The position numbers were made by a program, and so were the translations under genes. Positions 54,628 through 63,197 of a stretch of DNA of 64,000 bases are shown in pieces (the stretch's first letter is position 1; the number at the start of each line of letters is the position of its first letter). The stretch comes from Flavobacteria bacterium GWA2_35_26 (GTDB taxonomy: Bacteria; Bacteroidota; Bacteroidia; Flavobacteriales; Flavobacteriaceae). The stretch spans positions 56,303 through 120,302 of the forward strand of contig MGWH01000005.1 in NCBI GenBank assembly GCA_001800905.1. The letters are read 5' to 3'. The notes below the pieces were generated by a model, which was not told the origin of the DNA, did not search any database, and was given only the letters and a program-made list of their open reading frames with translations.

Positions 54628-54658
54628 AAAAAAGGAACCAATTTGGTTCCTTTTTTTT
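54626..54658. terminator. Bidirectional terminator
   Basis: A8-GGAACCAA-t-TTGGTTCC-T8. Confidence 0.85.
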
Positions 54659-55598
54659 ATTTTTTGTTTAATGGGCTAATGATTTCTACATTTTGAAATG
54701 CAATGGCTCCTTTAATTATTCCGGAAATAGTATTCCGTAGCGCGTCGATGATATGAATTTTCAGTTCGCTTTTTGGATAAATTATGCTGACTTCACGAGC
54801 AGGTTTCGGCTCTTTAAAATGGCGTAGTTTATTTTTATCCGATTCATTTAAGTCTAAAGTATGTAAAAAAGGCAATAAGGTGGTACCTAGTCCCTCATTG
54901 GCTAACTTAATCAAAGTTTCAAAACTACCACTTTCTATTTGAAAATGATTGATTTCATTTCTGGTATTATTTCTACATAAATTAAGGATACCATCTCTAA
55001 AACAATGTCCGTCTTGTAGTAATAGAATTTCGTCCAAATTCAAATCGGCAACTTCAATTTCTTTTTTCTGGTAATGTTGATGTCCCTCAGGAATATAGGC
55101 CATAAATGGCTCATAGTAAAGCACAATCTCTTTGATTTTTTCTTCTTGGAGCGGAGTTGCAGCAATCGCCGCATCCAAATGGCCGTTGTTTAATTTTGTA
55201 ATTATTTCAGCAGTATTGAGCTCTTCAATAATCAATTTTACTTTTGGATATTTTTTGATAAAATTTTTCAAAAACATCGGAAGCAAAGTAGGCATAATGG
55301 TAGGGATAATACCTAATCTAAATTCACCACCTATAAATCCTTTTTGTTGTTCAACAATATCTTGAATTCGATCAGCTTCATTAACAATACTTTTAGCTTG
55401 AGTTACAATTTTTTGACCTATATCGGTCAATTGTATGGGTTTTTTGGTGCGATCAAAAATTTGGATATTAAGTTCCTCTTCAATTTTTTGAATTTGCATA
55501 CTCAAAGTAGGTTGAGTTACAAAACATTTGTCTGCAGCTAGCGTAAAATTTTTGTATTCAGCTACTGCAAGTACATATTTAAGTTGAGTAATAGTCAT
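54657..55598 (-). CDS. oxyR: Hydrogen peroxide-inducible genes activator OxyR (LysR family)
   Basis: LysR HTH, GIIPTIMPTLLP, redox pair GHCFRDGILNLC (C199/C208 equivalents), SFETL. Confidence 0.93.
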   Translation of the reverse strand: MTITQLKYVLAVAEYKNFTLAADKCFVTQPTLSMQIQKIEEELNIQIFDRTKKPIQLTDIGQKIVTQAKSIVNEADRIQDIVEQQKGFIGGEFRLGIIPTIMPTLLPMFLKNFIKKYPKVKLIIEELNTAEIITKLNNGHLDAAIAATPLQEEKIKEIVLYYEPFMAYIPEGHQHYQKKEIEVADLNLDEILLLQDGHCFRDGILNLCRNNTRNEINHFQIESGSFETLIKLANEGLGTTLLPFLHTLDLNESDKNKLRHFKEPKPAREVSIIYPKSELKIHIIDALRNTISGIIKGAIAFQNVEIISPLNKK

Positions 55599-55724: not shown

Positions 55725-56690
55725 CTACGATGTGCAATTAATTATTGATAAATATATTGGCATGCCAATGGTTATATTCACTGGAAATGTTATGGCTAAA
55801 GCCATAGGTAAGTAAAGTCCAGGATTTGCTTTTGGAACTGTAATTTTCATTGTAGCTGGAACTGCTATATATGATGCACTTGCGGCTAATACTGAAAAAA
55901 TAAATCGGTTTGAAATATCATCGGTTACAACGGAACTTAATATTGCAAATAAACACCCATTTACAATTGGGATTGCCACTGCAAAAACTAATGGAAACCA
56001 TCCACTGCTAAAGAAGGATTTTAATTTTTTCCCACTCGTGATTCCCATATCTAATAAAAATATTGCAAGAAAGCCTTTGAATAAATCATTTGTGAACGGC
56101 TTTATTCCTTGAGCTTGTTCTGCATTAGCTAGATAGCCAATAACTAAACTTCCAAGGATAAGCAGAACGCTACCATTCGTTAGCGAATGTTTTACAATAG
56201 ATTTTTTTTGGAATTTAGTATTATCTCCTTTGTAAAAAATCGAAATAAGCATTAATCCAATAATTATGGAAGGCGATTCCATTATTGCCATAACTGCAAC
56301 CATATGCCCGTGTAATTGCAACTGATGCGCCTCTAAATAAGATACTGCGGTAACAAATGTAACGGCACTTACAGATCCATATGCTGCTGCAATAGCCCCT
56401 GAATCAAAGAGGTTTAATTTTCTTTTCAGAATAAAAAAGGTATATACTGGAATTATTGCCGAAATACCAATACCAAATAATAAAGACCATATAATTTCAG
56501 TTGAAAAGGTTTCGTGGGATAATTCTTGCCCCCCCTTAAAACCGATGGCAAATAAAAGATATAAGGAGATAAATTTTGAGGAATTTTCAGGAATTTCTAA
56601 ATCACTTTTCAAATACACTGCAATGATTCCAAGTACGAAAAAGAGAAGAGCTGGATTTGTTAAGTTTTCAATGAGCAAGTTTACATTCAT
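55725..56690 (-). CDS. sbtA: SbtA-family sodium-dependent bicarbonate permease
   Basis: LFFVLG...KSDLEIP, LYLLFAIGFKGG, AAAYGSVSAVTF, ESPSII, LLILGSL, FLLDMG, AASASYIAVPA, ITFPVNI.IGMP. Confidence 0.88.
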   Translation of the reverse strand: MNVNLLIENLTNPALLFFVLGIIAVYLKSDLEIPENSSKFISLYLLFAIGFKGGQELSHETFSTEIIWSLLFGIGISAIIPVYTFFILKRKLNLFDSGAIAAAYGSVSAVTFVTAVSYLEAHQLQLHGHMVAVMAIMESPSIIIGLMLISIFYKGDNTKFQKKSIVKHSLTNGSVLLILGSLVIGYLANAEQAQGIKPFTNDLFKGFLAIFLLDMGITSGKKLKSFFSSGWFPLVFAVAIPIVNGCLFAILSSVVTDDISNRFIFSVLAASASYIAVPATMKITVPKANPGLYLPMALAITFPVNITIGMPIYLSIINCTS

Positions 56691-56718
56691 AATTATTTAT
56701 ATCAAGTTTAGGTTTTAT

Positions 56719-58071
56719 TTATCGAATTTTTGAGAATTGTAGTCTCATTCCTTTTGGGGAATAATCAAATACTCCGTTAGTATATACTATATTTCCGTTT
56801 ACAATAGTTGTCATAATTTTACTTTGGAAAACTTGTTCTTCAAAAGGAGACCATTTGCATTTATATAAAATATTTTCTTTTGTCACTTTCCATGATTGGT
56901 TTATATCAACTAATACTAAATCAGCATAATAACCTTCTCTTATATAACCGCGCTCTTTTAGCTTATAAATTTCAGCAACATAATGAGCCGTTTTTTCAAC
57001 AATCATTTCTAATGTCAATTTATTTTGATGATACATTTCTAGCAATGCAGGAAGAGCATGCTGTACTAATGGACCTCCGGACATGGCTTGAAAATAGGTT
57101 CCTGTTTTTTCTTCTATGGTATGGGGAGCATGATCTGTAGCAATTATGTCTAATTTTCCGCTATGTAATGCATCAAATAAACCCTTTTGATTCATTTCTG
57201 ATTTGATTGCAGGATTCCATTTTATTTTGGCTCCTAATTTTTTGTAATCTTGGTCTGAAAACCACAAATGATGAACGCAGGCCTCGGCAGTAATTCGTTT
57301 TTTATGTAAAGGTGTTTTGCAATCAAATAATTCGGTTTCAGCTAGAGTTGAAATATGAAATAAATGCAATCTATTTCCGTATTTTTTTGCAATATCAATT
57401 AATTCTTTCGTGGTGGAGTAACATGCTTCTTCGTTTCGTATTATGGGGTGGTATTCAAAAGGAATATCTGAATTGAATTGAAGTTGTAACGTTTCAGTAT
57501 TCTTCTTGATAATAGCATCGTTTTCGCTATGTAACGCTATTAAAGTATTGGAATTGGCAAATATTTTTTCGATATATTCTGGGTAATTGGCTATAATCCC
57601 ATCCTCTTTAGAAAAATACAATCCGTCATCTGTAACCCCACAAACATTTTCCGTATCTGTTTTTAAAGTTTCCTCCCAATTATCTTTGGTAAGCCCCATA
57701 AAAAAAGAATAATTGGCTAATGATTTTTCATCTGCTAACGAATATTTTTGTTCAAGTAATTCATTAGTAAGTGTATTAGGTAACGTATTTGGCATGTCCA
57801 TAAATGAGGTAATACCTCCAGCAACAGCTGCTATAGATTCGGTGAATAGGTCAGCTTTGTGGGTAAGTCCGGGTTCTCTAAAATGAACTTGATCGTCAAT
57901 AAATCCGGGAAGTAGGTATAAGCCTTCTGCATTAATTTCATTGCAAACAAGTTCTTTGTGTATCGCAATTGAATGATCAATTTTCTCGATTCGATTTTTG
58001 TTAATTAAGACATCTTTGGTAACAATTCTCCCTTCGTTAACAATCTGTGCATTTCGTATTATTAGTCTCAT
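56719..58071 (-). CDS. pyrC: Dihydroorotase (Bacteroidota long-type scaffold) with a TDDG motif at the usual carbamylated-Lys position
   Basis: IDDQVHFREPG, DMPNT, HLFHIST, EACVHHL, IKWNP, IATDHAPH, SGGPLVQH, WSPFE; residues 143-150 read VCGVTDDG. Confidence 0.85.
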   Translation of the reverse strand: MRLIIRNAQIVNEGRIVTKDVLINKNRIEKIDHSIAIHKELVCNEINAEGLYLLPGFIDDQVHFREPGLTHKADLFTESIAAVAGGITSFMDMPNTLPNTLTNELLEQKYSLADEKSLANYSFFMGLTKDNWEETLKTDTENVCGVTDDGLYFSKEDGIIANYPEYIEKIFANSNTLIALHSENDAIIKKNTETLQLQFNSDIPFEYHPIIRNEEACYSTTKELIDIAKKYGNRLHLFHISTLAETELFDCKTPLHKKRITAEACVHHLWFSDQDYKKLGAKIKWNPAIKSEMNQKGLFDALHSGKLDIIATDHAPHTIEEKTGTYFQAMSGGPLVQHALPALLEMYHQNKLTLEMIVEKTAHYVAEIYKLKERGYIREGYYADLVLVDINQSWKVTKENILYKCKWSPFEEQVFQSKIMTTIVNGNIVYTNGVFDYSPKGMRLQFSKIR

Positions 58072-59030
58072 AATTCAGCTACTGCTCTGTTTAATCTATC
58101 GTTTATAGATTTTCCTAGATTAATATTGGGTAATTTTTCAATTAAGAGTACGTCTAGACCTAGAGCATCCAATTCATGTAAATAAGAATATAAATTTTTT
58201 GAAGCTTCCTTAAAATCTCCTGTTGGAGATAAAATGTACTGTACAATTGGCTTAGTTGTATTTACCTTATTTTGAAATTGAAGTACCCCAATTTTTTCAG
58301 ATGAGATAGACTCTAATTCTTTTTCAATATCCTCAACTAGAAAAGATTTTGTTTTTGGAGCATAATGTTTAGTAAACATTCCAGGCGCACTTGGGGCAAT
58401 AGAATCTTTATTGTGGACCTTTATTGGGCCTACAATTTTTTCAATTTCTTCGATCGGAATAGCACCATATCTATAAAGTACAGGTAGTTCTCCTTCAAAT
58501 CCGATAATGGTTGATTCAATTCCATTTTGACAATTTCCTCCATCTAAAACAACGTCTATATCATTCTTAAAATAGTCAAAAACATGTTGCGCATTTGTTG
58601 GGCTAATTGACCCAAAAGGATTGGCGCTTGGTGCAGCTAAGGGGAAGTTTAAATGATGTAATAGCTTCAAAGTCAAAGGATGATTAGGAACTCTAACAGC
58701 AACAGTATTCTTTCCTGAAGTTACCCAATCGGAAATACAATCTTGTTTTTTTAGTACTAAGGTTAATGCACCTGGCCAAAATTGAGCCGCTAATTGAGTT
58801 GCTAAATGAGGTATTTCTTTGGCGACTTCTTTCAGTTGTTCAGTTGACTTAAGATGAACGATTAGCGGATTATTATTGGGTCTTTTTTTTATTTCGAATA
58901 TTTTCTTAACTGCGGATTCGTTATAAATATTGGCAGCCAAGCCATAAACTGTTTCAGTTGGAATTGCAACTACCTTGCCTTCATTTAGGGTATGGATTGC
59001 GAAAGAAATATCTTTAGTTATTACTGTCAT
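58068..59030 (-). CDS. sua5: Sua5-type L-threonylcarbamoyladenylate synthase (YrdC domain + Sua5 domain)
   Basis: PTETVYGL, KKRP..NPLIVH, FWPGALT, AVRVP.HP, LAAPSAN, GIESTII, linker APGM..KHYAP, C-terminal LYSYLHELD...INDRLNRA. Confidence 0.92.
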   Translation of the reverse strand: MTVITKDISFAIHTLNEGKVVAIPTETVYGLAANIYNESAVKKIFEIKKRPNNNPLIVHLKSTEQLKEVAKEIPHLATQLAAQFWPGALTLVLKKQDCISDWVTSGKNTVAVRVPNHPLTLKLLHHLNFPLAAPSANPFGSISPTNAQHVFDYFKNDIDVVLDGGNCQNGIESTIIGFEGELPVLYRYGAIPIEEIEKIVGPIKVHNKDSIAPSAPGMFTKHYAPKTKSFLVEDIEKELESISSEKIGVLQFQNKVNTTKPIVQYILSPTGDFKEASKNLYSYLHELDALGLDVLLIEKLPNINLGKSINDRLNRAVAEL

Positions 59031-59036
59031 AATTAA

Positions 59037-59873
59037 TTAAGGATTACAATAGTCGCAGTACATTGGATCTTCATACTTTTTAGTGTTAGGAAACATTTTA
59101 GTCTCTTGATGTAAACATTTTTTGCATTGATAATTAACGCTTAAAGCTGATTGTGTAGGGGAGTTGCATAAATTACATGGTAATCCTCGAGTCACTTCTT
59201 TAATTTCAAAGCCCGGGGTATCGCATCTGGGACATTTGGTATTCATCTTTTCAACTAATTTATGAGCGGTTTTTTCAATAACTTTCATTCTAGTTGGATT
59301 GAAACAAGCTCTCATATCGGTTTCAACAAATACTTTTCCGAACATTTTTTGGATTTGGTTGAATTGAATAAGTAGTTCTTTTTCATTCGTAATCCCTTTA
59401 TAACATATAGAAAAATTACTGTCATCTGATTTAAGAATTAATCCGTGGGAAGGGAATTGAATATTGGATGAAAATTCTAATAGGTCTTGTTCTGTAGCGA
59501 CATATGTTCCATTAAAATTTGTCGAAGTGCTTAATTCAGTGGCGATTATTTCTAAATTGTTTTTAATATCCAATAGCATTAAATGTTCTTCATCTGCAGG
59601 TAGAAAAAATACGGATGGATGTGCTCCAAAGGATCCCTCACTGGCAATCACTAAATCGCATTTGTAATGGTCTACTGCTGATAAGCATTTTTGGCGAAGC
59701 GTGGAGATTACATCCTTCTTTCTTTCAATTTCTCCGCTAAATGTGCCTAATGTATCGGTATTAAATAGTTGGTTTACTATGCATGTAACACCAAATTCTT
59801 TTTCAAATATTGGAGCTATTATTTTTTCTTTTCCGTGTTGAGTAGCTATCAGTAAATTTCTTCCTTCAAACAT
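59037..59873 (-). CDS. DUF6671-like protein: ITPase-like N-terminus plus four CxxC motifs
   Basis: ATQHGKE, NTDTLGTFSGEIER, IASEGSFGAHP, ETDMRA..NPTRM, then CPRC, CNLC, CKKC, CDYC. Confidence 0.7.
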   Translation of the reverse strand: MFEGRNLLIATQHGKEKIIAPIFEKEFGVTCIVNQLFNTDTLGTFSGEIERKKDVISTLRQKCLSAVDHYKCDLVIASEGSFGAHPSVFFLPADEEHLMLLDIKNNLEIIATELSTSTNFNGTYVATEQDLLEFSSNIQFPSHGLILKSDDSNFSICYKGITNEKELLIQFNQIQKMFGKVFVETDMRACFNPTRMKVIEKTAHKLVEKMNTKCPRCDTPGFEIKEVTRGLPCNLCNSPTQSALSVNYQCKKCLHQETKMFPNTKKYEDPMYCDYCNP

Positions 59874-60151
59874 TATTTATTTACTGAAATTTTAATCATA
59901 CATTCAATTTCCAATGTATGCTTTTCTTTTTCCGCTAGATGAATCACTTCTTCAATTAAACCCTTCATTTTATTCAGTTCTTCAATCCTTTTTTTGGAAT
60001 GATTAGCATCTTTATTGAAGCGAATTTGACTGCTAAAATCCTCTAAACTATGAAAACTAATCTTGTTGTTAATTAATGAGTTAAGAAGAGTTTTTGCTTC
60101 ATTTGGATCAAAAATACCTTCTATTAATTTGTGTTGTGATTCGTTTTTCAT
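59873..60151 (-). CDS. Conserved hypothetical protein (92 aa, soluble, coiled-coil)
   Basis: LIEGIF.P.EA..LL..LI..KI.FH ... S.KRIEEL; its stop overlaps the next start (TAATG). Confidence 0.7.
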   Translation of the reverse strand: MKNESQHKLIEGIFDPNEAKTLLNSLINNKISFHSLEDFSSQIRFNKDANHSKKRIEELNKMKGLIEEVIHLAEKEKHTLEIECMIKISVNK

Positions 60152-60153
60152 GA

Positions 60154-60360
60154 TTATAATTTGACTTTAGTTATTTTTAATAAATAAGTTGATACAAACA
60201 ATGATACTCCAAGAATTATAGTAGACAAGAATGAAAATTCGGATAGAATATTAAATACCATTGCTACTGACAATAAAATAATTATTGTTTTGTAAATCGT
60301 ATTTTGTGATTTACAGAACATTTTAATTTTGCTTTTCAAAAGGAATCGTATCTTTTGCAT
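60154..60360 (-). CDS. Small membrane protein (68 aa, two TM)
   Basis: Basic N-terminus and two hydrophobic helices; 2 bp from the next gene; TAAATTTG -7 element at 60380-60387. Confidence 0.55.
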   Translation of the reverse strand: MQKIRFLLKSKIKMFCKSQNTIYKTIIILLSVAMVFNILSEFSFLSTIILGVSLFVSTYLLKITKVKL

Positions 60361-60379
60361 CTTTTTTTATTGCAAATTT

Positions 60380-60414
60380 CAAATTTAATAATCATATATT
60401 TTTATTTATATTTG
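60380..60414. promoter_or_regulatory. Back-to-back -7 elements of the divergent operon and lysR promoters
   Basis: Minus-strand TAAATTTG (60380-60387) and plus-strand TATATTTG (60407-60414) in a 78-bp gap. Confidence 0.6.
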
Positions 60415-60438
60415 TTATCATTTATATAAATATATTAT

Positions 60439-61362
60439 ATGAATTATACATTTCATCAATTAAAAGTTTTTTTGAAAGTTTCTCAAACAAAAAGTATTAC
60501 TAAGGCTGCTAATGAGCTACATCTTACACAGCCAGCAGTATCAATACAATTAAAAAATTTTCAAGATCAATTTGAAATCCCACTTACAGAAGTAATAGGG
60601 AGGCAATTGTATGTTACTGATTTCGGAAAAGAAATTGCATCAACTGCCGAACAAATTTTAAGTGAAGTTGAAAAAATCAATTTTAAAACACTTGCCTACA
60701 AAGGAATATTATCAGGGGTGTTAAAAGTATCTGTTGTATCGACAGGGAAATATGTGATGCCTTATTTTTTGAGTGATTTTCTAAATTCAAACAATGGTAT
60801 TGAGCTTGATATGGATGTTACCAATAAATCAAAAGTGATTAAAGCTTTAAGAAATAATGAAGTTGATTTTGCATTAGTTTCTAATCTTCCTGGAGAAATC
60901 AATGTTGAATCTGAAACATTAATGCAAAATAAATTGTTTTTGGTAAGTAATAAACAGTATTTGAATGATTCAAAATTATCAAGTAATGATGCTTTAATTG
61001 ATGTTCCTTTGATTTATAGAGAAGAAGGTTCTGCTACAAGATTACATATGGAAAATTATTTTTCAAAAAAAGGATATATCATTAAAAGCAAACTGCAATT
61101 AACTTCTAATGAAGCAGTTAAACAGGCAGTAATATCAGGAATTGGTCTATCAATCATGCCGTTAATTGGTTTGAAAAACGAATTGGAAAAGGGGGATTTA
61201 AAGATTATTCCTGCCAAAGGATTACCCATTGTGACCAATTGGAAATTAGTGTGGTTAAAAGGCAAGAAAATGAGTCCGGTAGCAGCAGCTTATTTAGAGT
61301 ATATCAGACAACAAAAAACTGTAATTAATGAAAATCAATTTTCATGGATTAATAATTATTAA
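60439..61362 (+). CDS. LysR-family regulator, CbbR/CmpR-like
   Basis: YTFHQLKVF, SITKAANELHLTQPAVSIQLK, STGKYVMP, REEGSATR, SNEAVKQAV.SGIG motifs typical of the CbbR-like effector domain. Confidence 0.8.
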   Translation: MNYTFHQLKVFLKVSQTKSITKAANELHLTQPAVSIQLKNFQDQFEIPLTEVIGRQLYVTDFGKEIASTAEQILSEVEKINFKTLAYKGILSGVLKVSVVSTGKYVMPYFLSDFLNSNNGIELDMDVTNKSKVIKALRNNEVDFALVSNLPGEINVESETLMQNKLFLVSNKQYLNDSKLSSNDALIDVPLIYREEGSATRLHMENYFSKKGYIIKSKLQLTSNEAVKQAVISGIGLSIMPLIGLKNELEKGDLKIIPAKGLPIVTNWKLVWLKGKKMSPVAAAYLEYIRQQKTVINENQFSWINNY

Positions 61363-62555
61363 TCATTTAGATTCTCATTAAATGCTGATGGAAGTAGGGT
61401 AGGAATAAACTTGATCAATATGGGTAACAACAAACTTCCTCCAGGCAATAAAAATATGGTTAATGATGGGATAGTTTTACAAATATCAAGTAATTGTTTT
61501 TTTATTTTTTTCTTTTCTTTTTCATCCAAATCCCTGCTTGTTGAATGAGCTAACAATACCATAAGTTCTTTACTTTGAACAATTTCCTTCACTAGGCGTG
61601 TTTTGTTACGTGCAATAAGAGTGACAACACTTTGCGTAGTTTGATCGTAAAAATGTTTAACAGGATTGGAATAATTAAAATAAGGAATTTCCTTTTTATG
61701 TTTGGAAATAAAGAGATTCGTATCGTTGATACTTTGTTTTACAAACTCGTCAGATACAGCAAGAGCTTCGGCCAATTGAAATAAAAAATAGGATTCATTC
61801 GTTTCTAAAACTCCATCGTTCCATAGCGCCATACCAGCAATGTCAATTAGGTAATTCTTTTCTAATTCATTGGTAAAAAAATCCAATTCCAGTGTTTCTA
61901 AACTCAAATTAGAGTTTTTGGAGAATTTACTATAACGTATAGATGCCTCAAAAAGTTTGATTAATAAGTCGTCGTATTGCGATTTATTGGTTTTGATTTT
62001 CAAAGCCAGAGTGACAATATTGACAATCGTTTCTTCTATTTTTTTGAGATATTTTTCCGGGATATTTCCATGCATTAAATATTGGCGAAAGGCCAATACA
62101 TCAATATACAAAAGCGCATTGGTAACTAAATGAGAAAAGTTTTTACTGATGATGTTTTCATTAGTTTGAACTCGTTCGTCAATGAATTTTTCAAGTGTAA
62201 GTGAAGGACTATTCTTTGGGAGTAATTTTTTAAACAAGTTAAATTCTTCTGGATGCATCTCATTATAAAAAGACACCGTTTCGGCAATGAATTCCTCCCA
62301 ATTAAGTTTTTCCTTAGTAACACTATAAACTCCTAAAAGGCTATTCAATAAAGCTACTTTTGACACTTCTTCTTTGAACCAACCAGTAATAGGAATTACC
62401 GATTTTGTATCCAACGAAATGATGTGCCCATAGATAAATCCTGATTTTCTTAATGCTTTATAGAAAGCATCATTTTCAGTGACCAATTCCATCTTTGAAA
62501 TCTGTTGTTCACTGAAAAATTTATCGATCCAACCGGGTACTGAAGGGTTTATCAT
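61359..62555 (-). CDS. LETM1-related protein
   Basis: C-terminal EKKKIKKQLLDICKTIPSLTIFLLPGGSLLLPILIK resembles the LETM1 TM/ribosome-binding segment. Confidence 0.7.
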   Translation of the reverse strand: MINPSVPGWIDKFFSEQQISKMELVTENDAFYKALRKSGFIYGHIISLDTKSVIPITGWFKEEVSKVALLNSLLGVYSVTKEKLNWEEFIAETVSFYNEMHPEEFNLFKKLLPKNSPSLTLEKFIDERVQTNENIISKNFSHLVTNALLYIDVLAFRQYLMHGNIPEKYLKKIEETIVNIVTLALKIKTNKSQYDDLLIKLFEASIRYSKFSKNSNLSLETLELDFFTNELEKNYLIDIAGMALWNDGVLETNESYFLFQLAEALAVSDEFVKQSINDTNLFISKHKKEIPYFNYSNPVKHFYDQTTQSVVTLIARNKTRLVKEIVQSKELMVLLAHSTSRDLDEKEKKKIKKQLLDICKTIPSLTIFLLPGGSLLLPILIKFIPTLLPSAFNENLND

Positions 62556-62672: not shown

Positions 62673-63197
62673 TTACTTTATGATTGCTGAGCAGGCTACT
62701 CGAGCTCCAGAATTTCCAGTGGGCTGCGTTACGAAATCATCAGCACCTTGATGCACTATCAATCCTTTTCCTAAAACATCTTTAGCAGGATCTCCACAAC
62801 CTATACACCATTCCTCAGTAGTCAAAGTGATTGTTCCATTTCCATTTTCATCAGCTGTGAAGTTTCCAATATCGCCTTTATGGTATTCTCCTTCTCCCCA
62901 TTTACCGTGTTTTTTAAAGGTAGGATTCCAATGTCCGCCTGCTGAACTTCCATCAGCGGCAGAACAATCTGATTTTTCGTGAATATGAATGGCATGAACA
63001 CCCGGTTTTAGCCCAGTAAGTTTAGCTTCAAAAGTGACTTTTCCTTTTTTCTCTGTAAAGGTTGCAGTTCCTGCAACTGAACTATTACTCTTCGGTTCAA
63101 AATACAGAGCTAGTTTTTTTACATCATTTGAATTGGCAGTTTTACAGCCAATAATAACAGCTACAATAACAAGAATGGATACTACTATTTTTTTCAT
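62673..63197 (-). CDS. sodC: Cu/Zn superoxide dismutase, lipoprotein
   Basis: Lipobox IIGC; HAIHIH, GGHWNP, HGKWG, HKGDIGN, IVHQ..DD, SGARVAC (all metal ligands and the catalytic Arg present). Confidence 0.93.
   Translation of the reverse strand: MKKIVVSILVIVAVIIGCKTANSNDVKKLALYFEPKSNSSVAGTATFTEKKGKVTFEAKLTGLKPGVHAIHIHEKSDCSAADGSSAGGHWNPTFKKHGKWGEGEYHKGDIGNFTADENGNGTITLTTEEWCIGCGDPAKDVLGKGLIVHQGADDFVTQPTGNSGARVACSAIIK

Follow-up and report, generated by a model that had tools for sequence, protein, structure and literature searches.

The stretch of DNA analysed here, referred to as the window, comprises 64,000 nucleotides of contig MGWH01000005.1 from Flavobacteria bacterium GWA2_35_26, and contains an operon of six minus-strand genes that lies head-to-head with a gene for a LysR-type transcriptional regulator (LTTR). 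The operon encodes a permease related to the bicarbonate transporter SbtA, an extra dihydroorotase (DHOase, PyrC), an extra Sua5, a DUF6671 protein and two small proteins. From comparisons of sequence and gene neighbourhood, the locus is probably the extended form of a Bacteroidota regulon that serves heterotrophs during a shortage of dissolved inorganic carbon (CO2/HCO3-). The spacings between the six genes, computed from the open reading frame (ORF) coordinates of the window, are 2, -1, 6, -4 and 28 bp, exactly as described in a first-pass annotation that was made from the sequence alone. Its account of a divergent lysR 78 bp from the operon is equally confirmed, as is that of one -7 element at the operon head, a TAnnTTTG on the operon strand (60387-60380). 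Family scans agree with the SbtA, dihydroorotase, Sua5 and LysR identities that it gave, and its three unknowns are DUF6671 (PF20376) and products of 92 and 68 amino acids without a family match. The features of the locus, in window coordinates, are:

60439-61362, plus strand: LysR-type regulator of the NdhR/CmpR/CbbR branch, with HTH_1 and LysR_substrate domains
60361-60438, no strand assigned: shared control region, with LTTR box, half-site and -7 elements in both directions
60154-60360, minus strand: small two-helix membrane protein of 68 aa, operon gene 1, no family match
59873-60151, minus strand: o92, a conserved soluble protein of 92 aa, no family match
59037-59873, minus strand: DUF6671 protein of 278 aa (PF20376, 298 bits)
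58068-59030, minus strand: full-length Sua5 of 320 aa, with YrdC domain and Sua5 C-terminal domain (TIGR00057)
56719-58071, minus strand: extra dihydroorotase of 450 aa on a type III scaffold (NF006688, the PRK09236 equivalog)
57622-57633, minus strand: codons for T147-D148-D149-G150 of the dihydroorotase, in place of the carbamylated lysine, located by alignments
55725-56690, minus strand: Sbt_1-family permease of 321 aa (PF05982), last operon gene

No terminator-like sites are found between the operon genes in a scan of the operon, and a scan for sigma-70 promoters, which gives 32 sites against 27.6 expected, is uninformative for Bacteroidota. The host genome (2.1 Mb in 6 contigs, 99.5% complete) has no match to the large subunit of RuBisCO, which extends to the whole genome what had been remarked of the window, and the sink of an autotrophic CO2-concentrating mechanism is thereby not found in it.

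The regulator is related to the low-CO2 regulators of cyanobacteria. Its best solved relatives are NdhR (5Y2V, 184 bits) and, over the effector domain only, CmpR (5Z49, 100 bits), with the next full-length solved LysR at 84 bits, and the earlier label of a "CbbR/CmpR-like" LysR is right at this level. Against the CbbR equivalog NF045990 it scores 181 bits, below the cut-off of 450, and by this measure it is related, but not orthologous, to proteobacterial CbbR. In cyanobacteria, NdhR (also CcmR) and CmpR, which belong to the same LysR branch, control sbtA, ndhF3 and the cmp genes; like those systems, the regulator described here adjoins an SbtA homologue and appears to be autoregulated from a T-N11-A box. 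The residue numbers of the NdhR effector contacts, taken from a 2026 review, were transferred to the module LysR via an HMMER alignment. The four contacts of NdhR with 2-oxoglutarate (2-OG), K104, Y105, S224 and N225, correspond to K104, Y105, S223 and N224 and are identical in all cases, such that the 2-OG interface is kept as in NdhR. Within the pocket for 2-phosphoglycolate (2-PG), made up of T101, T102, H130, N164, R195, T201 and R267, four residues are identical and T101S is conservative, while H130K and R267T/S set the module LysR apart from NdhR. All eleven effector positions are invariant or nearly so across 41 module LysRs. Unlike cyanobacteria, the host is a heterotroph without RuBisCO, and therefore neither 2-PG nor ribulose bisphosphate (RuBP) can be the signal.

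The control region carries the matching operator. LTTR box 1, TTATATAAATGATAA (60415-60429), is a T-N11-A site that follows the consensus of the family, TTATG-N5-CAT[TA]A, and is the predicted operator. It is accompanied by the -7 element of lysR, TATATTTG (60407-60414, plus strand), which is the only such element on the lysR strand of the intergenic head. A second half-site, TATGAT in the window and TTATGAAT in the family consensus, is located at about 60390-60398, and on the minus strand the operon -7 elements TAAATTTG/GAAATTTG span 60387-60373, where the TAnnTTTG at 60387-60380 is followed by GAAATTTG at 60380-60373. The -7 elements of both directions are of the Bacteroidota type. The same order, namely TTATG-N5-CAT[TA]A, the opposite-strand lysR -7, the second TTATGAAT half-site and the operon -7, runs through the conserved region, and a 62-nt consensus upstream of lysR is kept in 39 DUF6671 loci, as is a 40-nt operator/promoter stretch, which recurs in 16 of the 18 minimal LysR-SbtA loci described below. 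A position weight matrix (PWM) derived from other loci scores 43 bits on the control region of the window.

The permease encoded at the far end of the operon matches PF05982 over the full profile length (380.6 bits, cut-off 27) and aligns with Synechocystis SbtA (7CYE, 83 bits) in two stretches spanning both inverted repeats. At 321 aa it is shorter than the 374 aa SbtA, and it lacks the long cytoplasmic loop by which SbtA binds SbtB, with no counterpart to chain residues 167-212. Sbt_1 permeases occur in 25 of 151 sampled genera of Flavobacteriaceae, and in each of the 18 further Sbt_1 loci fetched from this family, sbtA is divergently paired with an orthologue of the same LysR (53-62% identity). 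In these minimal loci, o92 lies between lysR and sbtA in 8 of the 18, a beta-class carbonic anhydrase (beta-CA) and a SulP transporter are adjacent in 3, and 16 carry the operator where lysR begins, with scores of 32-50 bits. Because the LysR-sbtA pairing is universal in the loci fetched, with o92 in 8 loci and the operator in 16, the ancestral unit is LysR<>[o92]-SbtA. DUF6671, Sua5, the DHOase with the Asp-Asp-Gly replacement (DDG-PyrC) and an isocitrate dehydrogenase (IDH) found at other loci are add-ons, and the window holds the extended form. Marine flavobacterial genome papers name SbtA and SulP as proteins that bring in bicarbonate for anaplerosis (PMC3595038).

The extended form was surveyed by fetching eighty DUF6671 loci with their flanks and clustering all ORFs. 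By record title these loci are mostly Bacteroidota of several classes, with single records from Leptospira, Pyrinomonadaceae and Porticoccaceae; within the sampled Flavobacteriaceae, DUF6671 is present in 4 of the 151 genera. Percentages refer to the 42 DUF6671 loci whose flanks reach 6 kb or more on each side, where the neighbours are Sbt (60%), LysR (60%), o92 (57%), Sua5 (52%), PyrC (48%), IDH (33%), beta-CA (24%) and SulP (10%). The first-pass annotation had singled out SbtA, LysR and DUF6671 as a combination to follow through gene neighbourhoods, and these figures, together with the 18 further Sbt_1 loci, speak for a conserved link to SbtA and LysR. The typical order is LysR< [IDH>] [small membrane ORF>] o92> DUF6671> Sua5> [PyrC>] [beta-CA>] Sbt>, where brackets mark optional genes. 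In other genomes, the same regulator and operator head DabB-DabA or beta-CA, or have beta-CA and SulP adjacent. In one genome, the LysR heads a 102-aa o92 homologue, DabB-DabA (PF10070, 793 bits) and DUF6671, and beta-CA is the first gene in three loci. These swapped-in partners at LysR-headed loci point to inorganic carbon. BioD, a CO2-using enzyme, follows PyrC in four module loci, three of which are without a LysR in the fetched stretch, and at L006 a PyrC-DUF6671 pair lies between pyruvate phosphate dikinase (PPDK) and phosphoenolpyruvate carboxylase (PEPC), without a LysR nearby.

Several further genes were seen in the course of the survey. The NADP-dependent IDH found at the operon head in L005/L082 (6288-7724) and a further 30 loci has an identity of 78-89% in almost all of the 31, which come from several classes; the DUF6671 of these loci is about 55% identical to the window's copy. 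A beta-CA and SulP pair adjoins the module in other Flavobacterium loci (L010, L015, L053, L057 and L066). In seven loci (L023, L030, L034, L047, L056, L059 and L068), a 103-aa protein with weak similarity to CutA1, which has a PII-like fold (E = 8e-4, below cut-off), is encoded upstream of DUF6671, usually before o92, and is by this similarity a candidate analogue of SbtB. An unannotated gene, whose product of about 166 aa has a CPFC motif at the N terminus and matches nothing in Pfam, occurs in L013, L050 and L061, and is split in L005 (11231-11737); it comes after PyrC, or after DUF6671 at L061, and ahead of the genes that lead on to Sbt, and to judge from this position may be a further module member.

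The dihydroorotase of the operon is of type III by sequence. It scores 619.8 bits on NF006688, the PRK09236 equivalog (cut-off 535), and its best solved relative is the type III DHOase of Porphyromonas gingivalis (2GWN, 1.2e-126), whereas type I DHOase models reach 160-216 bits, far below their cut-offs. In type III DHOases, a lysine carbamate that bridges two zinc ions is described as invariant (PMC9771888). Here, VCGVTDDGLYF of the operon copy aligns to PGLK---LF of 2GWN and to GIKIFLGSS of the genome's second pyrC, such that the lysine is replaced by T147 and a D148-D149-G150 insert and loop 4 is changed. The "Lys-carbamate-free" label given to this enzyme earlier is right at the sequence level, and the replacement is systematic: [ST]DDGLYF is present in 42 of 42 PyrC proteins next to or near DUF6671, and G[IL]K[ILM]F, with the lysine, in 17 of 17 housekeeping copies. 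A maximum-likelihood tree places the variants in a clade apart from the housekeeping copies (support 99/98), with two deep sub-clades of its own. The other metal and substrate motifs (DDQVHFREPG, PNT, two His strands and ATDHAPH) are unchanged in the variant, and the Gln that stands for the first His of the HxH metal motif in DDQVHFREPG is common to the operon copy, the housekeeping copy and 2GWN, a Gln-for-His exchange that has been described for the type III motif (PMC9771888). The operon copy thus shares with 2GWN its QxH motif, remaining ligands, substrate motifs and NCBIfam equivalog, and differs from type III enzymes in having [ST]-D-D-G for the carbamylated lysine, in forming its own clade and in always being a second copy.

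Type I DHOases, by comparison, have an invariant Asp followed by Gly at the metal-bridging position (PMC9771888), a feature that the operon copy shares with the enzymes of Bacillus anthracis and Aquifex aeolicus, as likened by description (PMC9771888) and not by superposition. Unlike type I enzymes, it has QxH and not HxH, and sequence and tree place it in type III. With Asp-Gly at the lysine position of a type III sequence, the variant therefore joins a type III scaffold to a type I-like solution, and no such enzyme is mentioned in the DHOase literature searched. By the same alignments, an Asp may bridge the metals and the enzyme may be active without CO2. The housekeeping pyrC, located by whole-genome tblastn at C2:661812-663149, is 51% identical to the operon copy, scores 737 bits on the same equivalog and has a canonical loop (G-I-K-I-F-L-G-S-S-T-G-N-M); a canonical pyrC is also present in 5 of 5 genomes found with the variant. 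A third DHOase-like gene of ~420 aa (C2:164829-166016) has lost the metal ligands, with WFDSSVSLGEPG for DxHxHxRxPG and AFGDYN at the bridging position, and looks from these losses like a non-catalytic PyrC'-type protein.

Sua5 is likewise an additional copy. The operon protein scores 209 bits on PF01300, 88 bits on PF03481 and 199.7 on TIGR00057 (cut-off 123.2), and two further short YrdC/TsaC-type genes elsewhere in the genome (C5:55446-55922 and C6:158870-159418) are both above the TIGR00057 cut-off. The first-pass annotation had left it to be seen whether canonical pyrC and tsaC exist elsewhere; since a canonical pyrC and two short tsaC/yrdC-type genes do, the operon copies are extra and not the sole housekeeping copies. 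With the neighbourhood survey above, both sequence comparisons that the annotation proposed turn out in its favour, and its reading of the operon is partly supported. Among the 151 genera, full-length Sua5 occurs in 21 and Sbt_1 in 25, with 14 shared (p = 1.5e-8, uncorrected for phylogeny), and the two genes are usually unlinked where both occur. This overlap suggests a functional tie of long Sua5 with Sbt_1 beyond this operon. In another system, the synthesis of threonylcarbamoyl-AMP (TC-AMP) has a Km for bicarbonate of 13-31 mM, and the tRNA modification t6A falls without CO2 (PMC5951830).

DUF6671 is the member most tightly tied to the lysine-free DHOase. Across the 151 genera, DUF6671 and the DDGLYF motif are each present in 4, of which 3 are shared (p = 3e-5, uncorrected for phylogeny). 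The window's copy scores 298 bits on PF20376 against a cut-off of 23.8, and its homologues, all about 280 aa, number 2419 at 90% clustering, with 2119 representatives at 50%. Many charged residues are invariant, as are eight cysteines, and four CxxC motifs lie in the C-terminal region; in an AF2 model (pLDDT 88) an alpha/beta domain precedes this C-terminal CxxC region. By its invariant residues the protein looks like an enzyme. The fold weakly resembles YjjX, ITPase, Maf and CinA (E about 1e-3, TM 0.3-0.5), as in the weak matches to YjjX 1U5W (E = 8e-4, TM 0.29 by query and 0.43 by target) and ITPase 2J4E (E = 2.5e-3); a side note of the first-pass annotation gains modest support from these matches, which are too little for assigning a reaction. 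A profile search of 1.84 billion representatives returned no informative fusions of DUF6671 among its top 150, only relatives of the same length, and the literature searched makes no mention of DUF6671 or of this module. A metal-binding enzyme that handles nucleotides or carbamates, or a partner of the lysine-free DHOase, is our weakly held guess. Of the two small proteins, o92 has homologues in 46 of 82 DUF6671 loci and is modelled by AF2 (pLDDT 89) as a strand, a helical hairpin and a strand, with no significant match in a fold search of the PDB (best E-value 0.3). A hydrophobic ORF of 39-73 aa lies directly upstream of o92 in about 18 other loci, often with a 4-5 nt overlap, and as both it and o92 are conserved, both are real genes.

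These elements can be assembled into a proposed mechanism. An NdhR/CmpR-type LysR would bind the conserved T-N11-A box, with which the -7 element of its own gene overlaps. A second half-site lies just upstream of the operon -7, and the regulator would repress its own gene and switch the operon on under carbon shortage. The effector would occupy the retained inter-subunit anion site, where a dianion of the TCA cycle such as 2-oxoglutarate is the likeliest signal, as its level would drop when bicarbonate-dependent anaplerosis stalls. Under these conditions, the Sbt_1 permease would import bicarbonate, as its homology and its neighbours suggest. The extra DHOase would keep pyrimidine synthesis running without CO2, because its Asp-Asp-Gly insert, standing in place of the CO2-derived lysine carbamate, could allow the metal centre to assemble without CO2. 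The extra Sua5 would raise the capacity for making threonylcarbamoyl-AMP, a step with a millimolar Km for bicarbonate, and DUF6671, o92 and the small membrane protein would complete the regulon as conserved members. Only tentatively do we extend this scheme to a CO2-sparing response, in which a 2-oxoglutarate-type signal would release the NdhR-like regulator, bicarbonate uptake would be turned on, enzymes that are independent of CO2 or that bind bicarbonate better would be swapped in, and DUF6671 would be dedicated to this state. The dihydroorotase with aspartate for the lysine carbamate would be the clearest swapped-in case, and DUF6671 a new enzyme or assembly factor, for example one serving the lysine-free DHOase or handling a carboxy or carbamoyl intermediate. 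In air, heterotrophs need a carbonic anhydrase or a transporter, a need that can be bypassed by more endogenous CO2 (bioRxiv 10.64898/2026.09.08.750065; PMC8567241). This bypass would give a reason for an NADP-IDH at the operon head, as seen in a third of loci though not in the window.

A number of observations weigh against a regulon for inorganic carbon shortage. The permease is, on the alignments above, a distant homologue of the characterised cyanobacterial Na+/HCO3- symporter SbtA, and no SbtB-like (PII-like) partner is encoded in the window, which, along with the biosynthetic enzyme paralogues carried by the operon, is a difference from the cyanobacterial NdhR and CmpR regulons. The PWM finds no strong site in the 2.1 Mb genome besides the operon's own, and because there is no second operator, the regulon in GWA2_35_26 is a single operon. 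The host also has a Can-type beta-CA and SulP side by side (C2:619563-621887), as well as PEPC and BioD, outside the operon. We know of no demonstration that DHOase becomes limiting in vivo at low CO2 because its carbamate is lost. The tie between DUF6671 and the lysine-free PyrC is itself incomplete, as one genome has the latter without DUF6671 and another has DUF6671 without the lysine-free PyrC. As for Sua5, which had earlier been seen as a special low-CO2 version, no feature separates the operon protein from solitary long Sua5: the solo genes nest inside the diversity of the module proteins, which do not form their own clade, and related long Sua5 genes stand solitary, without module neighbours, in 13 of 13 other loci inspected. 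A special low-CO2 isoform of Sua5 is consequently rejected. Finally, bare PyrC-DUF6671 pairs among unrelated genes make up 9 of the 42 full-flank loci, about one-fifth, and therefore the pair is not intrinsically tied to carbon uptake. The 20 flanking genes taken from 11 loci with bare pairs hold no carbon-related neighbours, being glycoside hydrolases, peptidases, an ATP-grasp protein, a CitMHS transporter and others, and among bare-pair loci only L006 (PPDK and PEPC) and L045 (PPDK) have neighbours that fit with carbon.

The bare pairs and the solitary Sua5 genes are what would be expected of a mosaic operon, as is the minimal LysR-SbtA unit that stands without the cassette genes in 18 loci. 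Under this explanation, only LysR-[o92]-SbtA would be a carbon unit, and PyrC(DDG)-DUF6671 and Sua5 an independent nucleotide-metabolism cassette without CO2 logic, such as an alternative dihydroorotase and its partner enzyme, or a salvage or breakdown route for ureido compounds, that landed repeatedly behind the same promoter. We consider it unlikely, although it is the most serious of the rivals, as the cassette is found behind this one regulator in many Bacteroidota orders and has no other recurring promoter context. LysR-headed loci have otherwise received carbonic anhydrase and DabBA as inserts, BioD, PEPC and IDH are also found near the module, and the single systematic change in the PyrC paralogue removes the enzyme's only CO2-derived group. 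A more radical alternative would have the permease carry a substrate other than bicarbonate, in an operon for the synthesis, uptake or breakdown of a carbamoylated or ureido metabolite through Sua5-like adenylation, ring closure or opening by a cyclic amidohydrolase, and DUF6671. Carbamoyl or ureido chemistry is common to YrdC-type domains and DHOase-like amidohydrolases, so distant an SbtA homologue may have another substrate, and DUF6671 is enzyme-like. However, PyrC and Sua5 pass the NCBI equivalog cut-offs and keep all standard catalytic motifs examined, and a ureido pathway leaves the DabBA, beta-CA, SulP, PEPC, BioD and IDH partners and the NdhR-like regulator unexplained, which makes it improbable to our minds.

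The remaining rival is a metal-sparing module, where the Asp-for-carbamate DHOase and its partners would be backups for zinc shortage. The analogy is with Pseudomonas, in which pyrC2 and a carbonic anhydrase belong to Zur regulons. Carbonic anhydrase and DHOase are both zinc enzymes, and one zinc can suffice for type I DHOases that have Asp (PMC9771888). Against this, the regulator is an NdhR-type LysR and not Zur, the eight invariant cysteines of DUF6671 in four CxxC motifs would cost metal, and the recurring partners are transporters of three inorganic-carbon families; for these reasons, we judge zinc sparing to be unlikely, and the least probable of the explanations considered.

We therefore retain the shortage of inorganic carbon as the probable condition that the regulon serves, and class the locus as an NdhR-type carbon-uptake regulon that moved into heterotrophs and was extended with enzyme paralogues. 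The carbon supply systems of Escherichia coli, Staphylococcus aureus and Bacillus subtilis, which rely on carbonic anhydrase or MpsAB/DabAB, answer the same need, namely bicarbonate for anabolic carboxylations in air (PMC8567241; bioRxiv 10.64898/2026.09.08.750065), and DabBA and beta-CA occur as alternatives among the genes of this module. Each of those systems consists of a single transporter or enzyme, with no dedicated NdhR-type regulator or accompanying enzyme isoforms described in the literature covered, whereas in the module transport is linked to paralogues of CO2-dependent enzymes through a regulator and an operator that are both conserved. In its logic the module may be compared to the Zur and Fur regulons, where alternative isozymes are expressed under metal shortage and a cofactor-free paralogue takes over. 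Unlike in those regulons, the scarce "cofactor" would here be CO2 and the regulator is a LysR. Nothing that describes the regulator or its operator, the enzyme paralogues or DUF6671 turned up in searches of the literature.

To our knowledge, the sensing of CO2 or bicarbonate shortage in non-photosynthetic bacteria is barely known beyond the need for a carbonic anhydrase or a transporter. The locus offers a compact and testable regulon in a major aquatic phylum, with a homologue of the cyanobacterial low-CO2 regulators, an operator that is conserved, a definite set of genes and carriers that can be cultivated, and points to a possible way in which ordinary bacteria could get by when CO2 is scarce. 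Among the carriers, the complete operon headed by LysR is present in, for instance, Flavobacterium luteum NBRC 112527, F. cheonanense JCM 17069 and F. taihuense NAS39, and F. ranwuense LB2P22 has the operon with no LysR next to it. The new idea is one of cofactor sparing for CO2 itself, by way of a DHOase clade without the "invariant" lysine carbamate. The module is also the first functional context for DUF6671, a family of more than 2000 sequence clusters on which no literature was found. Carriers whose isolate names indicate lakes and sea ice may give it ecological relevance, as algal blooms in waters of this type strip CO2 and raise pH.

Further genes flank the module in the window. A LETM1-related biofilm-associated protein (NF040639, 524 bits; 61359-62555, minus strand) converges on lysR with ends that overlap by 4 bp, and a gene of this kind adjoins the module in at least 10 fetched loci, mostly labelled Flavobacterium. 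Beyond it, at 62673-63197 on the minus strand, a 174-aa secreted protein with HIHEKSDCS...GGHWNP motifs looks, from these motifs, like a Cu/Zn superoxide dismutase. On the other side, 126 bp downstream of sbtA, lies an OxyR-like LysR (54657-55598, minus strand), which at 222 bits is below the OxyR equivalog cut-off of 329 and has its own TATATTTG element at 55626-55619; a second LysR is found at the same position in several Flavobacterium-type loci. With respect to the carriers, many are metagenome-assembled genomes (MAGs) with isolate names that indicate lake and sea-ice samples. The labels of the module-bearing MAG records L040, L045, L034 and L065, which are given as Klebsiella pneumoniae, Asaia bogorensis or Chitinophaga pinensis, look unreliable.

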